Origin: a bacterium
Lineage (GTDB): Bacteria > Zhuqueibacterota > Zhuqueibacteria > Residuimicrobiales > Krinioviventaceae
Length of the DNA: 64,000 bases
Assembly: GCA_963675755.2 (NCBI GenBank)
Contig: CAXXMD010000003.1
Location: forward strand, 736,001-800,000
Direction: 5' to 3'
A program made the position numbers and the translations under genes. The notes under the pieces are model-generated. The model had not been told where the DNA came from, made no database searches, and saw nothing but the letters and a program-made list of their open reading frames with translations. Below, in pieces: positions 1-17,951 of the stretch (positions are counted from its first letter, which is position 1; each line of letters starts with the position of its first letter).

Positions 1-907
1 ATCCGCCGCCGGCCTGGTAATATACATACAATGTCGTTCCAATAAAAAAGAACAGTGCCGAAACCGGAATGTACAGCAATCCACCAACAATCAAACTCTT
101 GAATGCTTCTTTATCTGATTTTGCGGATTTGTAACGCTGAATAAAATTCTGATCAATTCCAAAATTCTGCAAATTCATTACAATACCAAAAAACAGAACG
201 ATCCAGAATGTTTCGCTGGTTAATGAGGGACCAAAATCACCCAGGCTAAATTTACCATGGGCCATTCCATAGCTAAACACTTGTCCCGGACCATCGGGCA
301 GGCCAAACAACATGGCAACGGTACAAATCAAAGCACCACCAATAAGTACCACACTTTGAATTGCATCGGTCCAGATCACTGCAACAATACCACCCACAAA
401 GGTATACAGTGTAACAGAAATACCCACTACGATAATAATAAGTTCAATGTTCCATCCCAACAGCAGAGATAACGGTAACGCGGTCAAGTACATAACCGCA
501 CCCATACGCGCAATCTGGGTCAGCAGATAACAAACGCTTGCATACACACGCGCCCAGGTACCAAACCGGTCTTCAAGATTTGCATAGGCAGAAATGGATT
601 GGCTGGCACGGTAATAAGGCATAAAATACTTGATTGCTATAATAGTAGTGATGGGCAGTGACAGGCTGAATGTGAAAAAACCCCAATTCTTGTCTGAAAA
701 GGACATGGCAGGAATACCAATAAAACTGAGACTGCTCAAGTATGTGGCAAACATGGACAATCCACAAAGAATACCCGGTAATGAACGATCACCTGCGGTG
801 AATCCCTCGGTAGAGGTGCTTCTTTTGTGAAAATAGAATCCCAATCCTATTGTGCCAAGAAAATAAACGACAAGTACAGCAATGTCTACAAAACCAAATT
901 GAGGCAT
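1..907 (-). CDS. Sodium:solute symporter (SSS family), runs off the left edge
   Basis: Manual translation from ATG at 907 (GGAG SD at 914-917): MPQFGFVDIAVLVVYFLGTIGLGFYFHKRSTSTEGFTAGDRSLPG...SMFATYLSSLSFIGIPA...YTFVGGIVAVIWTDAIQ...NFGIDQNFIQRY, the classic SSS motifs. Absent from the ORF track because its stop lies outside the window. Confidence 0.92.
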   Translation of the reverse strand, partial: MPQFGFVDIAVLVVYFLGTIGLGFYFHKRSTSTEGFTAGDRSLPGILCGLSMFATYLSSLSFIGIPAMSFSDKNWGFFTFSLSLPITTIIAIKYFMPYYRASQSISAYANLEDRFGTWARVYASVCYLLTQIARMGAVMYLTALPLSLLLGWNIELIIIVVGISVTLYTFVGGIVAVIWTDAIQSVVLIGGALICTVAMLFGLPDGPGQVFSYGMAHGKFSLGDFGPSLTSETFWIVLFFGIVMNLQNFGIDQNFIQRYKSAKSDKEAFKSLIVGGLLYIPVSALFFFIGTTLYVYYQAGGG

Positions 908-1882: not shown

Positions 1883-3103
1883 ATGAAATCACGCCAAAAG
1901 GCCCTGCTCTGGAACGTAATTATTATTTCAATACTGTTTTTGCCAACATTTTTGATTGCAAAAGAAAAAGTCAAAATAGCTATTTGGGGAGATTCACGAG
2001 AAAACTTTTTGGGCACCTGTGAAAACATTGCTCAACATTTGTTGTATAAAACAACAGACTGGGATTTCCAGGTGCATACCGGAGATTTTACTTCTACGGG
2101 CAGCCAGGAATCCTGGGAAAAATCTCTAAATTATAAAGGAGTGGACTCTGTTTTTGTCAAAGACAGATTTTTCATGTGCACCAGCAATCATGATCTGGAT
2201 AGAGAAAACTATAATAAATACACCTCCAATGTCATGCCTATAAATTCTTTGGACAGTACAACCCATTTTTATCATTATCAAAAGGGAAATGTTCATATTG
2301 TTGCGGTAGATGCCTATTTTACAAATCCTGAAGTGATGAACAACTGGCTTGACAGCGAATTGGCCAAAATCCCCGAGGATGATTGGTTAATCGGTTTTTG
2401 GCACAATCCCTGTTATGATCACCTTACCAACAAAGAGGGTTATTATGACACCTGCAGCCCCTGGCTGGAAAAATTCTATGAACATGGCGGTGATTTTATT
2501 TTACACGGACACGCGCACATGTATGTACGTACCCACCCCCTGATGCCGGATGGCAGAGTAGATCCGCAAAAAGGTATGGTGCATATAATAAACGGCTGTG
2601 GCGGAGCAGACTTTAAAGCCCAGCAAGAAGTAACAGAAAAAACGGCCTATACCCCTTCTCAAAGATCCTTTGGGTGTATAACATTTATTTCGTTTGAAGA
2701 AGACAAAGCTACGGTTGAAACGGTAGATGTAAGAACATTGATCAACTATGGTACTATTGATAAATGGACCTGGGACAAATCAGAGATTCAAACTGGCATT
2801 GAACAAAACAATACGCTGTCTTTTACAGATTATCAATTGAAACAAAACTATCCCAATCCCTTTAATCCAACAACAACCATTCGTTATACCCTGGGAACAC
2901 CGGGCTATGTACAACTCGAAATATTTGACATTACCGGTAAAAACATTTCAACACTTGTTCATGAGAACCAAAACGCGGGCAATTATTATTACGACTGGAC
3001 AGCAACAGATGCCCATGGCAATACATTGCCCAGCGGCACCTATTTCTGTCAAATACAATGTGGAGATTATCGACAAACCATTAAAATGCTGCTTTTGCGC
3101 TGA
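1883..3103 (+). CDS. Secreted calcineurin-like metallophosphoesterase with C-terminal sorting domain
   Basis: Signal peptide; WGDSR, HTGDF, SNHD, WHNP and GHAH metal-binding motifs; QNYPNPFNP...KMLLLR tail. AAGGA SD before ATG 1883. Confidence 0.85.
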   Translation: MKSRQKALLWNVIIISILFLPTFLIAKEKVKIAIWGDSRENFLGTCENIAQHLLYKTTDWDFQVHTGDFTSTGSQESWEKSLNYKGVDSVFVKDRFFMCTSNHDLDRENYNKYTSNVMPINSLDSTTHFYHYQKGNVHIVAVDAYFTNPEVMNNWLDSELAKIPEDDWLIGFWHNPCYDHLTNKEGYYDTCSPWLEKFYEHGGDFILHGHAHMYVRTHPLMPDGRVDPQKGMVHIINGCGGADFKAQQEVTEKTAYTPSQRSFGCITFISFEEDKATVETVDVRTLINYGTIDKWTWDKSEIQTGIEQNNTLSFTDYQLKQNYPNPFNPTTTIRYTLGTPGYVQLEIFDITGKNISTLVHENQNAGNYYYDWTATDAHGNTLPSGTYFCQIQCGDYRQTIKMLLLR

Positions 3104-3108
3104 TCAGT

Positions 3109-4809
3109 TTATTTCGATACCGGCTCCAACCGTCCGTTTTCCAGGGGTGCGGTATCATCATCAGCAAACCAGAAACTGTACAGCTTGGCATTTTTCAGAT
3201 AAAACTTTAATGCAATGGCCCTTTTTTCAAAGGGCTTTTTCTTATTACTGTATTTAGCAGAATCTCCAAGATCTAACCAATCCTTGGGGAAATTGTCTAC
3301 AAAATTCTCGTCATGCTTCCAGGCTACCTTGTGATTAATAGCATTACCGGTAAAAGGGATACAATTCTCTGCCCGAAACAGGCCTTGAATATCATCCGAG
3401 TATTTTTCCACTTTTTTCAATTCCACATAATGATAGTCCTGCAATACCTCTACCCGAATCTCTCCTCCGTTGGCATCCGCATTGATGTATAAATGTTTAC
3501 CCTTTGGCCAGAACAGCGTGGTCAGCAGGGTTCCGGTTTCTTCTCCCGCGTCCATAGAAACAAATCCGTCCGTACGCAGGGTTGCCAATCCGGTTCGCAC
3601 TTTGTGGTCACGGGGCTTGATCTCATCGTGATCGTATTTTCTGCCGGTGTAATAAAAATAGAGGCTGTCGCTTTTGACGATTGGTGGACAATTCATCCAG
3701 ACCAGTCCGGCATCCCAACTGTTTTCGGGGCCGGTGGACAGGAACGGTTCGCCCTGACAAACCCGGTCCCAATTGCGGCCGTCATGGCTAAAGGCAAGCT
3801 CACAATGGAATTTTCCAGCCATTTCGGGATCCAGTGAAGCAGGACGATGATACATGACCGGAATTCCAATATACCCGCCAGCGTAACCAGTCACCTGCAT
3901 GAAATAGATATCCGTTGACGGACCATCCTTGGGATCGGCTTCCAGGACAAGCTCGTCATCAGACCAGGTGATACCGTCTGGACCAAAAGTCGCTTCGCTA
4001 AACAGCACCTTGCGCCAGCCGGATACGATCCGGGAGGGTGGGTCCCACAGGCGCAGGTAACAGAGATAACGATTGTGAAAGGGATCGTACGCGGGTTGAT
4101 TGGCTTCACCCAGTATGTCCCGCTGTGTTTGGTTGGGCATGGTCTGCCAGTTCAATCCATCCCGGGACTGGATGATCATAACCTGACGGGGTCGTGGTTT
4201 GGAACGAATAATAATGGCCCGATAGGGATAATCGGTTGCTTCCCGTACTTTGAAAAACGCCGAGTAATACGAAGTAAATGCCTCGCCGTTGAATTGGTTT
4301 AAATTTAAAATATTATTATGTTCGGGGACATCCTTTTTATCCAGTCCCTCCCAAATTTCATGGGACGGGAGCTGATCGGTAATGATGGGTGTGAAAGACC
4401 TGCCATCTGCGGTATGAAAAACCGAGTACAAGGTTTTCTCCTGAAAAGAGCCCACACAATAGGCAATGTGCCCCTTTTCATCCGTATCGGGAACAATGGA
4501 AAAAATTGTTGGGGAATGCATCAGCTTTTCGGAAACGGGTAATGACAGGGGTGCAGTGTATTTGTTTACCGCATGCAAGGTGCGTTTCACATTCCTGCTG
4601 CCCATGATAAAGGTATCATCCAGAAACAGGGCCGGTTCAGCGCCAATGATCCTGCCGGATTGGCGTTTAATGTCCCACTCGGATTGCGGGAAATCGGATT
4701 CAAACCCGATGGTGCGGTCCAGATGATAGACCGTGTTGGTCTGGCTGTATGTAATACCGGCAATCGTAACAATGATGAGGATTATGAGGATTCCGTTTTT
4801 CTTGAACAT
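3109..4809 (-). CDS. Secreted GH32/GH43-like five-bladed beta-propeller protein (putative glycoside hydrolase)
   Basis: Signal peptide; SRDGLNW and SHDGRNW Asp-box motifs; C-terminal 'LRTDGFVSMDA...LYINADA...KLYSFWF' module shared with 21196-22680. Confidence 0.65.
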   Translation of the reverse strand: MFKKNGILIILIIVTIAGITYSQTNTVYHLDRTIGFESDFPQSEWDIKRQSGRIIGAEPALFLDDTFIMGSRNVKRTLHAVNKYTAPLSLPVSEKLMHSPTIFSIVPDTDEKGHIAYCVGSFQEKTLYSVFHTADGRSFTPIITDQLPSHEIWEGLDKKDVPEHNNILNLNQFNGEAFTSYYSAFFKVREATDYPYRAIIIRSKPRPRQVMIIQSRDGLNWQTMPNQTQRDILGEANQPAYDPFHNRYLCYLRLWDPPSRIVSGWRKVLFSEATFGPDGITWSDDELVLEADPKDGPSTDIYFMQVTGYAGGYIGIPVMYHRPASLDPEMAGKFHCELAFSHDGRNWDRVCQGEPFLSTGPENSWDAGLVWMNCPPIVKSDSLYFYYTGRKYDHDEIKPRDHKVRTGLATLRTDGFVSMDAGEETGTLLTTLFWPKGKHLYINADANGGEIRVEVLQDYHYVELKKVEKYSDDIQGLFRAENCIPFTGNAINHKVAWKHDENFVDNFPKDWLDLGDSAKYSNKKKPFEKRAIALKFYLKNAKLYSFWFADDDTAPLENGRLEPVSK

Positions 4810-13343: not shown

Positions 13344-15623
13344 TCAGTCACTTACCGGGGCGCTGATTACACCCAAAAAGCGCCCCATCCAATAGGGCAG
13401 TAAAAAGGTATCGCCAGCAGAAAGTTCGTGATGACGGTCACCGGCATCCAGCGTGAACCAACTGCGGTTGTGCTTGAGTGAGGGACGCTCATCCGGGGGC
13501 AGCACCTCGGCGGTTGTTTGTCCCCAGAAATCCTTTTCAACAAATTCTATGTCTTTGCGGTGACTGTTGATATTGGCAAACTGGATCATATCCAGGGGGA
13601 ATTCTTTTAAAGTCCAGACAGATTCATCCAGATCAAATTCCTTTGCACCGGTCAAGGCGTAACAAAAGTTCCACAACGGGTTCTTTTCGGGACGCTCCAT
13701 CTGCCAGTGGTCTTTTATAGCATCAAAATATTGGGTCTTTAATGTATCGTTAAACGCATAGGGATACAGTCCCCAATACGCCAGAAAATACATCTCGTCA
13801 TCCGAGTGGTTCCACTCTTCCGAAAGCATCCTGCTCCAACCATCCGCATCCTCCGGTGCATGCCCAATCTCTGAGAACGGACGCATCAGGTTTTCCAGAT
13901 ATCCGTATTCATTCATCAACTCGAATGCTTTGTCTTTATAAATATCTTTGCCGGTAAACCGGTATGCGGTTTGCAAAAACGCAACAATATTGGACGAACA
14001 GATTTTGCGGTCGCCAATCATGGTATCAAACCGGTTGACATATTCCGGGTTCCAGCGTCCCCACAGAGACGGCAGACCGTTATAATCGATCAAACACATA
14101 TCATTGGCAACAATATAGCCCATCAGATCATCCAGAATTTTTACAGCGCGGTCCCGCCATTCCGCATCCTCAATATATTCTGCAATGAGGGTCATGGCAA
14201 AAATCTGCCCAATGGTCTGATCACTGCTTGCGGAAGCGCGCCAGTCCCACTCGGGATCGTCAGCATGGCGCCAGCTAATGGTGCCCTGGTATCCGTCATA
14301 CCAGTAATGGTTCACATAATCACGATATTCTTTATGGAAATCCTGATAGCCCCGGCGCTCAAATGAACGACCAAACAATCCCTTGATATTATTAATGGTG
14401 TGAAAGCGCTCAAGCGCTTCAAAGGCCTCGTAAGCATTCTGTTTTGCTTCTTCCGAACCCGTTGACAGGTAACGAAAGATCTGACTGCCCAGGTACATGC
14501 TGGTCCACAGGTTGTCGCTGTCTGCCACCCAGTTCTCGGCAGTGGATAAATTATGGTCATTGAGTCTGGATACATTGACATTCACACCAAACCGGATGTG
14601 ACGTTGACGCACCTGTTTTTCATAAACCATGGCCTTTTCTTCCAGGGTCATTTCTTTAAAACAGATCTGTCCCAATCCCATATCGGTTAAAATGAGTACA
14701 GACCCTTCCGGTCCCGGGGCAATATGGGTAACCGCATCTCCGGGGAGCCAGCGACGACCATAATAATAATTGAATTTACCATCATCACGCAGCATAAACG
14801 CGCCTTTTGTGGATCCAAACCATATCTGCCCATTTACTTCCCGGATTGATGTGAGTTCGGTCCAGGGTAGTTTTTCGTTCAGGTCATTTACAAGCGTTCC
14901 GGAAGCATCCAGCACGTAATACCCGGCATCGCTACCCAGATACACTTTGCCGTTGGTTTGAGAAACATCAAAACAGGCCAATGAACCTTTGCTGTCCTGA
15001 AACACGGATTTTAATTTCTTATCCCCACTGGAATATACAAACAGGGTCTTTTGTGTTAATACCCAGTATTTTTGGTTCAAGGCATCATATTTTAAATCCA
15101 GTACACGATCATCTCGTACCGTGTCGAACCAGAGTTTCATGGAATCATTGATTAGCGCAACGGATTGGCCATCCGAGATCATGAATGTAAAATCTGGCCC
15201 GCCGCAAAGCAATTGCGCGGTTGGCATTTGATGTCTCGAGAATAGTTTTCCGGCCCAGGCATTACTGAAAATGGCCTCGTCATTCAGATAGACAAACTGG
15301 TTTTCATAGACAATCATGTCCTTTACATTCTTGTCCTTCATGGGACGATAACGGCGGTCCTGCTCAAGCGAACCGGGGATTTGAAGATGCCCGTTGTAGG
15401 GATTATAGAGATCGTTCGCGGCCAGCACCTGGATCACTTTATTGCGGTCAGCACCCACTTTGTGCAGTCCCTCGAGCTCTGCAGGATATTTCACTGCATA
15501 ATCCTGCAAATAAGGTACATCCTGATACACCGGCTGTCCGGCCTTGTTGACGGTAGAATCGGTAGATGAACAGGAAAAATTCAATAGAGATAACAGTATT
15601 GGAAAAAGAAAATGGATTTTCAT
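13344..15623 (-). CDS. Hypothetical lipoprotein: beta-propeller repeats + (alpha/alpha) barrel-like C-terminal domain
   Basis: Lipobox-like LNFSC after a hydrophobic stretch (ATG 15623); WFGSTKGA and YLGSDAG propeller repeats; DSDNLWTSMY, SSDQ and FLLPYWMGRF in the C-terminal half. Confidence 0.55.
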   Translation of the reverse strand: MKIHFLFPILLSLLNFSCSSTDSTVNKAGQPVYQDVPYLQDYAVKYPAELEGLHKVGADRNKVIQVLAANDLYNPYNGHLQIPGSLEQDRRYRPMKDKNVKDMIVYENQFVYLNDEAIFSNAWAGKLFSRHQMPTAQLLCGGPDFTFMISDGQSVALINDSMKLWFDTVRDDRVLDLKYDALNQKYWVLTQKTLFVYSSGDKKLKSVFQDSKGSLACFDVSQTNGKVYLGSDAGYYVLDASGTLVNDLNEKLPWTELTSIREVNGQIWFGSTKGAFMLRDDGKFNYYYGRRWLPGDAVTHIAPGPEGSVLILTDMGLGQICFKEMTLEEKAMVYEKQVRQRHIRFGVNVNVSRLNDHNLSTAENWVADSDNLWTSMYLGSQIFRYLSTGSEEAKQNAYEAFEALERFHTINNIKGLFGRSFERRGYQDFHKEYRDYVNHYWYDGYQGTISWRHADDPEWDWRASASSDQTIGQIFAMTLIAEYIEDAEWRDRAVKILDDLMGYIVANDMCLIDYNGLPSLWGRWNPEYVNRFDTMIGDRKICSSNIVAFLQTAYRFTGKDIYKDKAFELMNEYGYLENLMRPFSEIGHAPEDADGWSRMLSEEWNHSDDEMYFLAYWGLYPYAFNDTLKTQYFDAIKDHWQMERPEKNPLWNFCYALTGAKEFDLDESVWTLKEFPLDMIQFANINSHRKDIEFVEKDFWGQTTAEVLPPDERPSLKHNRSWFTLDAGDRHHELSAGDTFLLPYWMGRFLGVISAPVSD

Positions 15624-15857
15624 AAGTGCACTCTCTGGATTCATGATAGGATTTCTGGAATTGTTTTGAAATAATACTCATTTTCAACCAGAGAATCAAG
15701 CGTTGGATTGGATTGTGAAATTATTTGAGGGTAAAATGCAAATACGCAAAAACACTTGTAAAATTAAATTTATCATTTTAATGGAATAATTTTTGTTAAG
15801 TTTAGATTAGAAATATAAAAGAACAATAATGATCCATCAACACATATAAAGAAAATC

Positions 15858-15886
15858 TTGACAATTATAAAAATATTGATTACAAT
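15858..15886 (+). promoter_or_regulatory. Near-consensus sigma70 promoter of the NYN gene
   Basis: TTGACA(15858-63)-17 nt-TACAAT(15881-86). Confidence 0.8.
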
Positions 15887-15926
15887 TAATCATATTAGTA
15901 AATAAATAATTTCTATATATTCTCAT

Positions 15927-15990
15927 CCCCCAAGGCATTGTGTCCTTGGGCCCCCCGGGTGTTACGATGCCCGGGGTTTTTATTTGGGGG
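15927..15990 (+). ncRNA. Putative structured leader RNA: hairpin + intrinsic terminator upstream of the NYN gene
   Basis: CCCAAGG/CCTTGGG stem (15929-15950), then CCCCGGGTGT-TACG-ATGCCCGGGG stem (15953-15976) followed by TTTTTATTT; GC-rich island in AT-rich DNA. Confidence 0.6.
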
Positions 15991-15996
15991 CATTTC

Positions 15997-16641
15997 TTGA
16001 AAACCAATTTCCTAATTGACGGCTTTAATTTATATCATTCATTGAACGATGCCAGTAAAGATTTTGGATTAAACGGCAAGGGTATTAAATGGTTAGATAT
16101 AAAAATGTTATGTGAATCTTATTTACATCTTGTTGATAAAAATGCACAAATAAACAATATTTATTATTTTACTGCTTTGGCCAATTATTTAATAAGATTT
16201 AAGCCCCTTAAAGTAGAAAAACATAAAAAATACATTAAAGCCTTAAATTCTACAGGTGTAATTGATTGTAGAGGGAATTTCAAGAAAAAAACCGTATCAT
16301 ACAAAAACCATGCTGTTGATTTAAAATTCTTTAGTCATGAAGAAAAAGAAACAGATGTTGCAATATCCATAAAAATATTGGAAAATTTTATTAAAAACGA
16401 ATGTGATGTTCAAGTTATTATAACCGGAGATACAGATATTGCTCCTGCAATTCGACTTGCAAAAGAATTGTTCACTAATAAATTATTAATTGCCGGTTTT
16501 CCATACAAAAGAAAAAACAAAGAACTCGCAAAATTGGTTGATAAATCATTTTCCATTTCTAAAGAACAATATCTGAAATACCAATTACCCCACATTATAA
16601 ATGTAAATAATAAAAACATCACAAAACCTGAAAACTGGTAA
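15997..16641 (+). CDS. NYN / LabA-DUF88 (PIN-fold) ribonuclease-like protein
   Basis: Acidic motifs LIDGFNLY, EEKETDVAI, ITGDTDIAP. TTG start at 15997 with GGGGG SD at 15986-15990. Confidence 0.9.
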   Translation: MKTNFLIDGFNLYHSLNDASKDFGLNGKGIKWLDIKMLCESYLHLVDKNAQINNIYYFTALANYLIRFKPLKVEKHKKYIKALNSTGVIDCRGNFKKKTVSYKNHAVDLKFFSHEEKETDVAISIKILENFIKNECDVQVIITGDTDIAPAIRLAKELFTNKLLIAGFPYKRKNKELAKLVDKSFSISKEQYLKYQLPHIINVNNKNITKPENW

Positions 16642-16655
16642 ATAAAATACCAAAA

Positions 16656-17951
16656 TTACCGCATCAACACCAATTTTCGGGTTTCGCTAAATCCTCCAGC
16701 CCTCAACCGGTAAAAATAAACACCGGAAGCGAGTTGGTCTGATGATAAAGTTATTTGATAATTACCGGGGGTTTTTTTCTCATTGACCAACTGCTTAACC
16801 AGCTTGCCATTCACATCATATACACTCAATTTTACATGTGCCTGCCCTTGTAGCGCGTATTCAACAACCGTACTGCTGTTAAAAGGATTGGGATAATTTT
16901 GTTTTAACTTGAAAATTTCCGGTTGTTTGATATCTGGTTCTGTTATTTCTGTTACAGGATTATAACAAAACAATCCATTCCCCGTGCCTAAAAAGAGTTT
17001 TTGATAATATTTTGAATACAATAAGGGCAAATTTCTAAAACCACCTTCAAAAGCGTCATTATTGCCACCAACTTTATTCCAGCCAACTTTATTCATTTGC
17101 CTATTGTATACATTAATCTCTGTAGCAGGGAACATGTGCTTACTTATAAACAACAAAGAATCTGTTGCAAAGACGCTGGAAACAGAAGCTTTTTCAGGCA
17201 AACCTGTGTTTTCCTGTTCCCAGGTTATCCCCCCATCTCGGGAGATAAAGAATCCTTCCAGTTGAAAACAAATGATACAAGTAAAAGATGAATCTGTTTT
17301 AATGAATTTCAGATCTCGTATCGTATTGGCTAACGGTTGCTGCCAGGGTTCCCAGGTTTCACCAAAATCCAGACTTTTGTAGATCATATCCGACCTCGCG
17401 TCCGCAGCATATAAAGTCCTTTGATCAGGTCCGGTTTCAAGTACTTGTATCCTCATTGTGGAATCCAGCTTGGTCCATGATAATCCACCATCAAAACTTT
17501 TATACAGAGCAGACTTGGGAAGAAGCCAGTCATAATACTTGGCAGCCAATAACACCTGTGGATGAAGCGGATCGATGCGGACAAGCTCAAGATCATTATT
17601 CCAGCCATTTAATACGATTCCCGAATCAGATGTTACCCAGGATTTTCCGTGGTCAGTTGATTTGTATAAATGGTTGTAACAGGCTACATACAGTGTATCC
17701 GGATTCGTTGGATGAAAAACCATATCAACTACAGCATAATTTTCAAGTATGGAATCCCATGTGTTCCCCCCATCTGAGCTCTTGTAAAGTCCTCCATAAT
17801 TTTCATCAGTAACACATCCGGCCAAAAGTATACTACTGTCTGCAGGATCAGTTTTGATAAAACTGACCATTGTCCCCTGCATACCAACAGGCTCCCACTC
17901 TCCAGCTAATAGTAAACAAGGTAATAGTATAAAATAGAAAATTTTTCGCAT
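16656..17951 (-). CDS. Secreted BNR/Asp-box beta-propeller protein with C-terminal sorting domain
   Basis: Repeated S.DGG.(T/S)W boxes; QNYPNPFNS...KLVLMR tail. Confidence 0.85.
   Translation of the reverse strand: MRKIFYFILLPCLLLAGEWEPVGMQGTMVSFIKTDPADSSILLAGCVTDENYGGLYKSSDGGNTWDSILENYAVVDMVFHPTNPDTLYVACYNHLYKSTDHGKSWVTSDSGIVLNGWNNDLELVRIDPLHPQVLLAAKYYDWLLPKSALYKSFDGGLSWTKLDSTMRIQVLETGPDQRTLYAADARSDMIYKSLDFGETWEPWQQPLANTIRDLKFIKTDSSFTCIICFQLEGFFISRDGGITWEQENTGLPEKASVSSVFATDSLLFISKHMFPATEINVYNRQMNKVGWNKVGGNNDAFEGGFRNLPLLYSKYYQKLFLGTGNGLFCYNPVTEITEPDIKQPEIFKLKQNYPNPFNSSTVVEYALQGQAHVKLSVYDVNGKLVKQLVNEKKTPGNYQITLSSDQLASGVYFYRLRAGGFSETRKLVLMR

Follow-up and report, generated by a model that had tools for sequence, protein, structure and literature searches.

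Does the short RNA made in front of a mobile nuclease gene hold the nuclease in check, and by what route? This question is raised by a cassette in a stretch of 64,000 nucleotides from a bacterium of the family Krinioviventaceae (assembly GCA_963675755.2, contig CAXXMD010000003.1, positions 736,001 to 800,000 of the forward strand), and the whole of this stretch is called the window here. In the cassette, a sigma-70-type promoter is followed by a leader RNA with two hairpins, P1 and P2, and by a gene for an NYN-domain nuclease. A preliminary description, made from the letters of the window, had read the leader as a switch-like terminating RNA and the cassette as a candidate RNA-antitoxin module. 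In this study, we examined the leader and the nuclease together with their homologues. On the comparative evidence, the 64-nt leader is a member of a conserved, strongly covarying two-helix RNA family that is tied to NYN proteins across phyla.

The folding energy of the 116-nt leader was unexceptional for its composition (z = -1.28). Because the energy alone is not unusual, the case for a function of the leader rests on cross-sequence comparison. The upstream regions of 84 homologous loci were compared; for the test with a model, 83 homologous genome loci have upstream sequence and count as testable. Nearly throughout these loci the same layout was found, consisting of a promoter, 5-11 nt, the tail (A/G)UCAUCC, P1, a CC linker, P2, a T-tract and the start codon. 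The base of P1 is CCAG...CUGG or a compensated variant, and the length and loop of P1 vary across the family. P2 has 9-11 bp, is G-C-rich and carries a UNCG-type loop (UUACGA or UUGCGA), with a T-tract behind it in nearly all loci. The start codon lies 5-70 nt past the P2 stem.

The pairing of both helices was examined with a MAFFT alignment of 63 elements (A2) and a covariance model, R1. In the MAFFT alignment, 92.2% of the cells were paired compared to 74.2% in shuffles, and there were 210 double-change cells compared to 58; none of 500 shuffles reached the observed values. Controls in which the register was slid gave 30-55% pairing. All 8 modelled pairs of P1 were changed on both sides in this set, as were 7 of the 8 in an independent set. 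For P2, 96.3% of the cells were paired and 7 of its 10 pairs were changed on both sides. Among 49 sequences outside the seed, the paired fraction was 92.1% (79.3% in shuffles), 14 pairs had changes on both sides, and 105 double-change cells were counted against 25.9, with 0 of 500 shuffles as high. The alignment of these 49 sequences was fitted to R1 and leans towards the structure; the MAFFT-only alignment gives a similar picture. A G-U pair was seen 34 times at one position of P2, and therefore the RNA corresponds to the plus strand. The unpaired tail and the CC linker were at least 90% conserved across phyla in the 63-sequence alignment.

The link between the RNA and the nuclease was found from both directions. 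Besides the window, R1 matched at full length, on the sense strand and directly 5' of NYN in 80 of the 83 testable genome loci, and 19 of the R1-matching genome loci were outside the seed of the model. One locus (L074) gave a match once the filters were off, and no R1 match was obtained upstream of a 28%-identical NYN (L013). Within the genome of the window, the leader is the only strong match. Among 60 relatives, a strong match was obtained only in the genome that also has the closest NYN (G013). A weak match of 28.4 bits in another relative (G019), between convergent genes without NYN, was read as an unrelated terminator. In the opposite direction, a 19-base pattern made of the tail and the P1 base was scanned over metagenome contigs, which gave 117 stretches, and 80 of these were retained as loci. 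An R1 match was obtained in 32; the other 48 have no P2 and are chance matches to the pattern. In this RNA-first scan, an NYN gene lay immediately 3' on the same strand in 28 of 30 complete motif copies. Altogether, 132 R1-positive places were examined, and in 129 of them the RNA and NYN are joined in cis. The preliminary description had asked whether upstream regions of homologues share a two-hairpin motif, and these results answer that they do, with both helices covarying. The features of the window copy are listed in Table 1.

Table 1. Positions of the cassette features in the window and the basis of each assignment.
Feature	Position	Strand	Basis
AT-rich accessory insert with the whole cassette	~15677..16656		GC drop and G001 homology breakpoints
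Sigma-70-type promoter TTGACA-17-TACAAT	15858..15886	+	11/12 consensus positions
Conserved RNA element, R1 family member, 64 nt	15922..15985	+	full-length R1 match, 62 bits, E 9.8e-15
5' single-stranded tail UCAUCC	15923..15928	+	U, C, A, C, C at least 90% conserved (63-sequence alignment)
Hairpin P1, 7 bp, loop CAUUGUGU	15929..15950	+	folding of window copy; stem CCCAAGG/CCTTGGG
Hairpin P2, predicted intrinsic-terminator stem, 10 bp, loop UACG	15953..15976	+	terminator scan; 7 G-C pairs
U-tract UUUUUAUUU, predicted 3' end of short RNA	15977..15985	+	terminator scan
G-run GGGGG, Shine-Dalgarno-like in window copy	15986..15990	+	sequence
NYN-domain nuclease gene, 214 aa, TTG start, PADLOC HEC-09 family	15997..16641	+	PF01936 and PDLC04163 matches

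The protein of the window matches PF01936 (LabA/DUF88-like NYN) over residues 5-183 (E 3e-7, 31.5 bits against a cut-off of 24.2). It also matches PDLC04163, the PADLOC profile of the candidate defence family HEC-09, with residues 6-214 on positions 7-202 of 203 (E 1.8e-39). Translation from the TTG at 15997 places its N-terminus in register with homologues of about 212 aa. Across 29 aligned sequences, one of them the window protein, the acidic residues D8, D120, D145 and D147 do not vary, in keeping with the earlier remark that the acidic residues of the nuclease are intact. An AlphaFold model of the protein had a pLDDT of 93.4, and its best matches in the PDB were the LabA-like 2qip (E 3.4e-7, TM 0.74 on the target) and the MARF1 NYN domains 5yaa and 6fdl. 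As modelled, the window protein has a PIN-like NYN fold, and ribonuclease activity is predicted for it. A search for homologues returned 1332 proteins at E <= 1e-3; of the best 120, almost all are 206-259 aa long. In the genome collection there are at least 551 homologous loci. Going by the record titles, the best 80 of them span more than a dozen groups at phylum level: Chloroflexota, Acidobacteriota, Desulfobacterota, Bacteroidota, Eisenbacteria, Fibrobacterota, Omnitrophota, Actinomycetota, Planctomycetota, Gemmatimonadota, Verrucomicrobiota, Pseudomonadota, Lentisphaerae, Chlorobiota/Ignavibacteria, Zixibacteria and others. By record title, the carriers include the cultured strains Lentisalinibacter sediminis C23 (L055) and Thalassobacterium maritimum SDUM461003 (L073). 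Among the 60 relatives, 4 carry a homologue of the window NYN protein.

The promoter, the first hairpin and the terminator before the TTG start had all been named in the preliminary description, and each is present in the window. TTGACA (15858-15863) and TACAAT (15881-15886) form the best promoter-like site within 15400-17000. Folding confirmed P1, and the terminator scan found P2 (loop TACG in DNA) followed by TTTTTATTT up to 15985. This terminator pattern occurs once in the 64-kb window, compared to 0.05 occurrences expected by chance. With its U-tract, P2 is a near-ideal predicted intrinsic terminator. It was also considered as the terminator of the upstream gene, which was ruled out since the upstream gene is divergent, the strands of the neighbours vary among loci and the promoter abuts the motif.

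A sigma-70-like promoter (at least 9 of 12 consensus positions) was present within 70 nt in 59 of 81 elements, and in 49 of these 59 the -10 box ends 5-11 nt before the motif. Because of this spacing from motif position 1, the R1 motif is the 5' end of the transcript. In the window copy, the distance from the -10 box to the motif is 35 nt, and the window RNA would have an AU-rich 5' extension estimated at about 28 nt. The promoter distance in 15858-15921 thus implies either this extra AU-rich extension or another, unrecognised promoter. Judged from the sequence, the stretch ahead of the start codon is too short for a second promoter, and the NYN mRNA would therefore have to come from read-through. 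A near-consensus promoter directly followed by a near-ideal terminator is a wasteful arrangement unless the short RNA itself is wanted.

Translation is likely to be affected as well. The start codon lies no more than 5 nt past the motif in about 22 of the 81 elements. Between -17 and -4, 46 elements have no 4-mer that resembles a Shine-Dalgarno (SD) sequence; 17 elements have one past P2, and in 18 it is confined to the 3' arm of P2. Because the start is close and the SD lies only inside the P2 3' arm in 18 of the 81, P2 must hinder the initiation of translation.

The preliminary description had further proposed that CCCCCAA can pair with TTGGGGG, which contains the SD, so that the leader would switch between two states. 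In the window copy, the duplex of CCCCCAA (15927-15933) with UUGGGGG does exist, with 8 bp and -13.3 kcal/mol. It is particular to this copy and is not conserved: across the 81 elements, cognate duplexes between the tail and the downstream region averaged -5.70 kcal/mol compared to -5.43 for non-cognate ones, and a mean as low was reached in 239 of 2000 permutations. A cross-locus duplex test was used in the search for an antiterminator because self-folding of the P2 5' arm satisfies constrained folding. No conserved antiterminator that competes with P2 was found in this test. No upstream segment covaried with the arms of P2 (753 and 919 of 2000 permutations; 0 of 2000 in the arm-arm control of P2), a test in which invariant C-rich or G-rich segments could pair without leaving a signal. 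As nothing covaries with either arm, the terminator looks constitutive. With 46 of the 81 elements having no separate SD and no covarying antiterminator in the family, the notion of a switch that sequesters the SD did not hold up.

We also looked for a protein partner. No neighbour family recurs around the NYN loci, and the neighbours differ in strand, size and family. A small protein antitoxin was not found either, as no small open reading frame (ORF) was common to more than 2 loci. The absence of a protein antitoxin next to the gene, noted earlier for the window, thus extends across the homologous loci. Among 135 neighbours of NYN homologues, few are related to defence, for example ResIII in 4 and Lon/BrxL in 2.

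No Rfam 15 family reached its gathering score in the window or in any of 40 NYN loci, and the Rfam check proposed in the preliminary description thus led to no described family. In 131-nt searches with the window leader and with another leader (L024), the best similarity was to anti-hemB at 17.7-18.3 bits against a cut-off of 49.5. Other weak similarities of the leader were to Spot 42 and PsrR1, and all of these are generic two-hairpin small RNAs (sRNAs). TEG147 (RF03535), a short, GC-richer S. aureus sRNA of about 60 nt that is classed as bona fide in strain HG003 (PMC5826253), gave no match at E <= 10 on either leader and none at its gathering score on the 40 NYN loci. It was also not found in the genome of the window, in a scan in which the control genomes likewise had no hit, and these searches show no relationship between TEG147 and the present family. 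Literature searches that linked NYN with type III toxin-antitoxin (TA) systems, RNA antitoxins, non-coding RNA (ncRNA) or structured-RNA motifs returned nothing relevant. The main text of Weinberg et al. 2017 contains none of the terms NYN, DUF88 and LabA, and the main text of Payne et al. (bioRxiv 10.1101/2024.01.29.577857), which describes HEC-09, contains none of the terms ncRNA, non-coding, noncoding and terminator. The RNA family appears to be undescribed in the literature searched, supplement-only motif lists aside, and in Rfam 15.

Three loci differ from the common arrangement. In L027, a motif of 71.3 bits (3649-3718, minus strand) has its own TTGACA-type promoter and lies convergent to NYN, 13 nt past the NYN stop; the NYN gene itself (2989-3636) has no leader and follows a histidine kinase gene. 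In L160, the promoter, the motif (504-568) and the first NYN-like codons are kept and the rest of NYN is gone. An unrelated PIN-domain (VapC-like) pair follows this orphan motif at 749-1353. In L180, an intact motif of 61.7 bits (483-549, minus strand) lies 13 nt before a DUF433-DUF5615 (PIN-like) pair at 3-469.

The cassette also has relatives in mobile DNA. On IMG/VR contigs, R1 precedes NYN in 19 of 39 loci, including NYNs that are just 27-29% identical to the window protein. Among further viral loci, a terminator-like hairpin was present within 100 nt 5' of the start in 13 of 18, compared to 23 of 346 for other ORFs. By eye, most of these 18 loci have the layout of tail, hairpin, linker and terminator with a diverged sequence. 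Distant NYNs (about 35% identity) are found on enterobacterial plasmids of 3.5-5 kb beside a divergent helix-turn-helix (HTH) gene. R1 did not match the small plasmids of E. coli, Salmonella and Klebsiella whose NYN is 35% identical. On ColE1-like plasmids of E. coli and Klebsiella (L103:1330-1440, L104, L105), a palindrome GGCCTGCA...TGCAGGCC with A/T-run flanks was seen about 28 nt 5' of the annotated NYN start; it was found by eye and not listed by the terminator scan. In the Mycobacterium phage prophiGD43A-1 (L107:3001-3621), a 28%-identical NYN lies between the integrase and the immunity repressor, beside divergent HTH genes. This interval is a typical site of prophage-borne defence genes.

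In the window, the GC content is 27-32% over 15550-16749 compared to 42-55% in the flanks. A complete genome of the same genus (G001) is homologous to the window up to 15676 (91% identity) and again from 16657 (98%). It has both flanking genes and no cassette, and the slot is filled by an AT-rich gene for a 273-aa protein with a TonB_C domain (L099:2845-4059). The bounds of the insert follow from this genome, which keeps both flanks with another gene between them. The view of the cassette as an AT-rich solo insert was thus borne out by the GC contrast and by the genome without it. Taken together, these comparisons indicate that the cassette is a self-contained mobile accessory unit with two conserved parts, the small RNA and the predicted NYN ribonuclease.

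Some further observations concern the surroundings of the cassette. What lies between the two conserved flanking genes varies, as the slot is occupied differently in the window (15677-16656) and in G001 (L099:2845-4059). The leader and the NYN gene are each present in one copy in the 6.48-Mb genome, and a repeat or mobile DNA element was ruled out as the identity of the leader since it is single-copy. The neighbours of NYN in the window are a protein without a Pfam family and a BNR/sortilin-like protein. The latter is encoded by the convergent downstream gene (16656-17951, minus strand) and carries a C-terminal sorting domain of the type IX secretion system (T9SS); the host lineage therefore has a T9SS. 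A tRNA gene is located no more than about 1.5 kb from the cassette in 8 of 60 loci (L018, L025, L036, L044, L050, L055, L062, L068). With mixed identities, 8 of 60 loci and none in the window, this linkage was not taken as meaningful. An int-alpA RNA match lies just upstream of the leader in L036. A cobalamin riboswitch (104 bits) is found about 200 nt 3' of the NYN gene in another locus (L047:3854-4053) and is probably unrelated.

From these data we propose how the cassette may work. The strong promoter would start transcription at or just before the UCAUCC tail, and the nascent RNA would fold P1 and then P2, a very stable terminator that has a UNCG-type loop and is followed by a U-tract. The majority of transcripts would end near 15985 as a small RNA, of about 65-75 nt in most family members; the small RNA of the window would have about 90 nt because of its longer 5' end. 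Only read-through transcripts would carry the NYN frame, which starts a few to a few tens of nt past the terminator, and the synthesis of the nuclease would be held low at both transcription and translation initiation. We infer that the short RNA, made in abundance, would also be the cognate partner of the nuclease, an RNA antitoxin or inhibitor that binds NYN and holds it back. When the supply of RNA is lost, through shut-off of host transcription by a phage or through loss of the element, NYN would be freed to cut cellular or phage RNA. We likewise infer that P2 terminates efficiently, that NYN is toxic and that the RNA inhibits it in trans. In short, the pairing of RNA and enzyme probably keeps a dangerous enzyme in check.

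We give this type III-like reading, in which cis attenuation is combined with trans inhibition of NYN by the RNA, slightly less than an even chance. The near-consensus promoters, the tail and linker conserved to at least 90%, the retention of the RNA in L160 and the separate RNA in L027 argue for a role in trans. Several points weigh against it. The fusion to NYN in nearly all places is explained equally well by a leader that acts purely in cis, and the RNA is uncoupled only in L027. Among 80 relatives of the L027 genome, 1 has NYN (49% identity) with the motif in the usual place, and the L027 layout was unconfirmed there. Both hairpins are often capped by generic stable tetraloops, which suggests selection for folding and not for recognition of the loops. 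The motif in L180 is more readily seen as a portable leader acting in cis than as an antitoxin specific to NYN. To our knowledge, all described type III antitoxin RNAs have tandem repeats, whereas the cassette RNA is a single two-hairpin unit with one motif copy per locus. In addition, when HEC-09 was placed under an added inducible promoter, with about 150 bp of its native upstream DNA retained in the clone, it did not protect against the phages tried, and no toxicity is reported for it in the main text of that study (bioRxiv 10.1101/2024.01.29.577857). A terminator built into the native upstream region would explain this negative test. A broader claim is that the two-hairpin RNA is a protein-binding antitoxin or sensor and that the cassette represents a new, type III-like class of TA or abortive-infection systems, made of a non-repeat RNA and a PIN-fold toxin and spread horizontally across over a dozen phyla, prophages and plasmids. 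We hold this claim only tentatively and give it clearly less than an even chance.

Alternatively, the leader may act in cis alone, as a constitutive attenuator and insulator that sets a low level of a harmful nuclease whatever the context and is perhaps an autoregulatory target that NYN cuts or binds, with the short RNA as a by-product. The motif is fused 5' of NYN in nearly all copies, the start codon closely follows it in about 22 of 81 elements with the SD only in the P2 3' arm in 18, and it also precedes the other PIN-like toxin pair of L180. Terminator-like hairpins before distant NYNs, in 13 of 18 viral loci and by eye before the E. coli plasmid NYN, also speak for it. However, near-consensus promoters would be odd if the aim were only low expression, and the conservation of the UCAUCC tail and the CC linker goes beyond the needs of a terminator. 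In L027, the RNA gene stands apart from NYN as a convergent unit of its own, and L160 retains the promoter and the RNA after the loss of NYN. We regard action in cis alone as a serious contender that falls clearly short of an even chance. A leader that responds to a signal, with P2 opened by a ligand, by a host or phage antiterminator protein or by an RNA to turn NYN on, is unlikely in our view. The position of the terminator between promoter and gene, the occluded ribosome-binding region, the alternative 8-bp pairing of the 5' region with the G-run in the window copy and the conserved single-stranded tail as a possible binding site would suit it, and a factor that acts on the invariant C-rich or G-rich segments would escape the covariation tests. 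Against this, no alternative helix covaries with the P2 arms, the pairing of the window is not conserved, two simple hairpins of variable length offer no multi-helix junction or pocket, and no Rfam riboswitch matched in the window or the 40 loci. Very improbable is an ordinary base-pairing sRNA, with a 5' seed UCAUCCCC and a terminator, whose targets are other host or phage mRNAs and whose promoter NYN merely shares. Its architecture resembles that of sRNAs made of a seed and a terminator, to which all of the weak Rfam similarities belong (anti-hemB, 17.7 bits), and the element has C-rich unpaired stretches; however, the seed is kept in over a dozen phyla without an obvious common target, and the RNA travels almost exclusively with NYN.

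These results add a widespread covarying RNA family that is missing from Rfam 15 and tied to one nuclease family. HEC-09, so far a single-gene candidate, becomes a two-component module of RNA and protein, which gives a reason to retest it with and without the leader. If the RNA does inhibit NYN, PIN/NYN nucleases would join the toxins that are controlled by RNA antitoxins, and such TA systems would reach many more kinds of bacteria than the known type III families do. Even if the leader acts only in cis, its compact lock of promoter and terminator, conserved before a nuclease gene across phyla, would offer a general way of moving a hazardous gene from host to host.

Type III TA systems (ToxIN, CptIN, TenpIN) consist of a promoter, a structured ncRNA, a Rho-independent terminator and an endoribonuclease gene reached by read-through, without a protein antitoxin. 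They are mobile units linked to phage defence and are found on plasmids and prophage-like DNA. The window cassette shares the order of promoter, RNA, terminator and nuclease and likewise has no protein antitoxin; its relatives also occur on plasmids and prophage-like DNA, and it would work by a similar logic of RNA excess. Its nuclease has an NYN/PIN-like fold, in contrast to the ToxN/AbiQ fold of type III toxins. Because its RNA has no repeats and its fold is NYN and not ToxN/AbiQ, the cassette falls outside the known type III families. Of the type III-like layout proposed in the preliminary description, the order thus stands, being conserved with NYN across phyla, and membership fails on repeats and toxin fold.

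HEC-09 is an NYN candidate that was found within Hma defence systems (Payne et al., bioRxiv 10.1101/2024.01.29.577857). As far as the main text of that study describes it, it shares with the window protein the protein family and a MARF1-like NYN fold with three conserved aspartates. The window copy differs in that it is not embedded in Hma or another defence system, its neighbours being without a defence family. The match of the protein to a published candidate defence family is in keeping with the earlier suggestion of a possible role in phage defence.

Autoregulatory 5' leaders are known for ribonuclease genes of E. coli, namely rnc, rne and pnp. The cassette resembles them in having a structured leader before a ribonuclease gene, possibly recognised by that ribonuclease. 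The E. coli leaders do not consist of an intrinsic terminator that opens the transcript behind a strong promoter. They are also chromosomal housekeeping features, whereas the window cassette is mobile.

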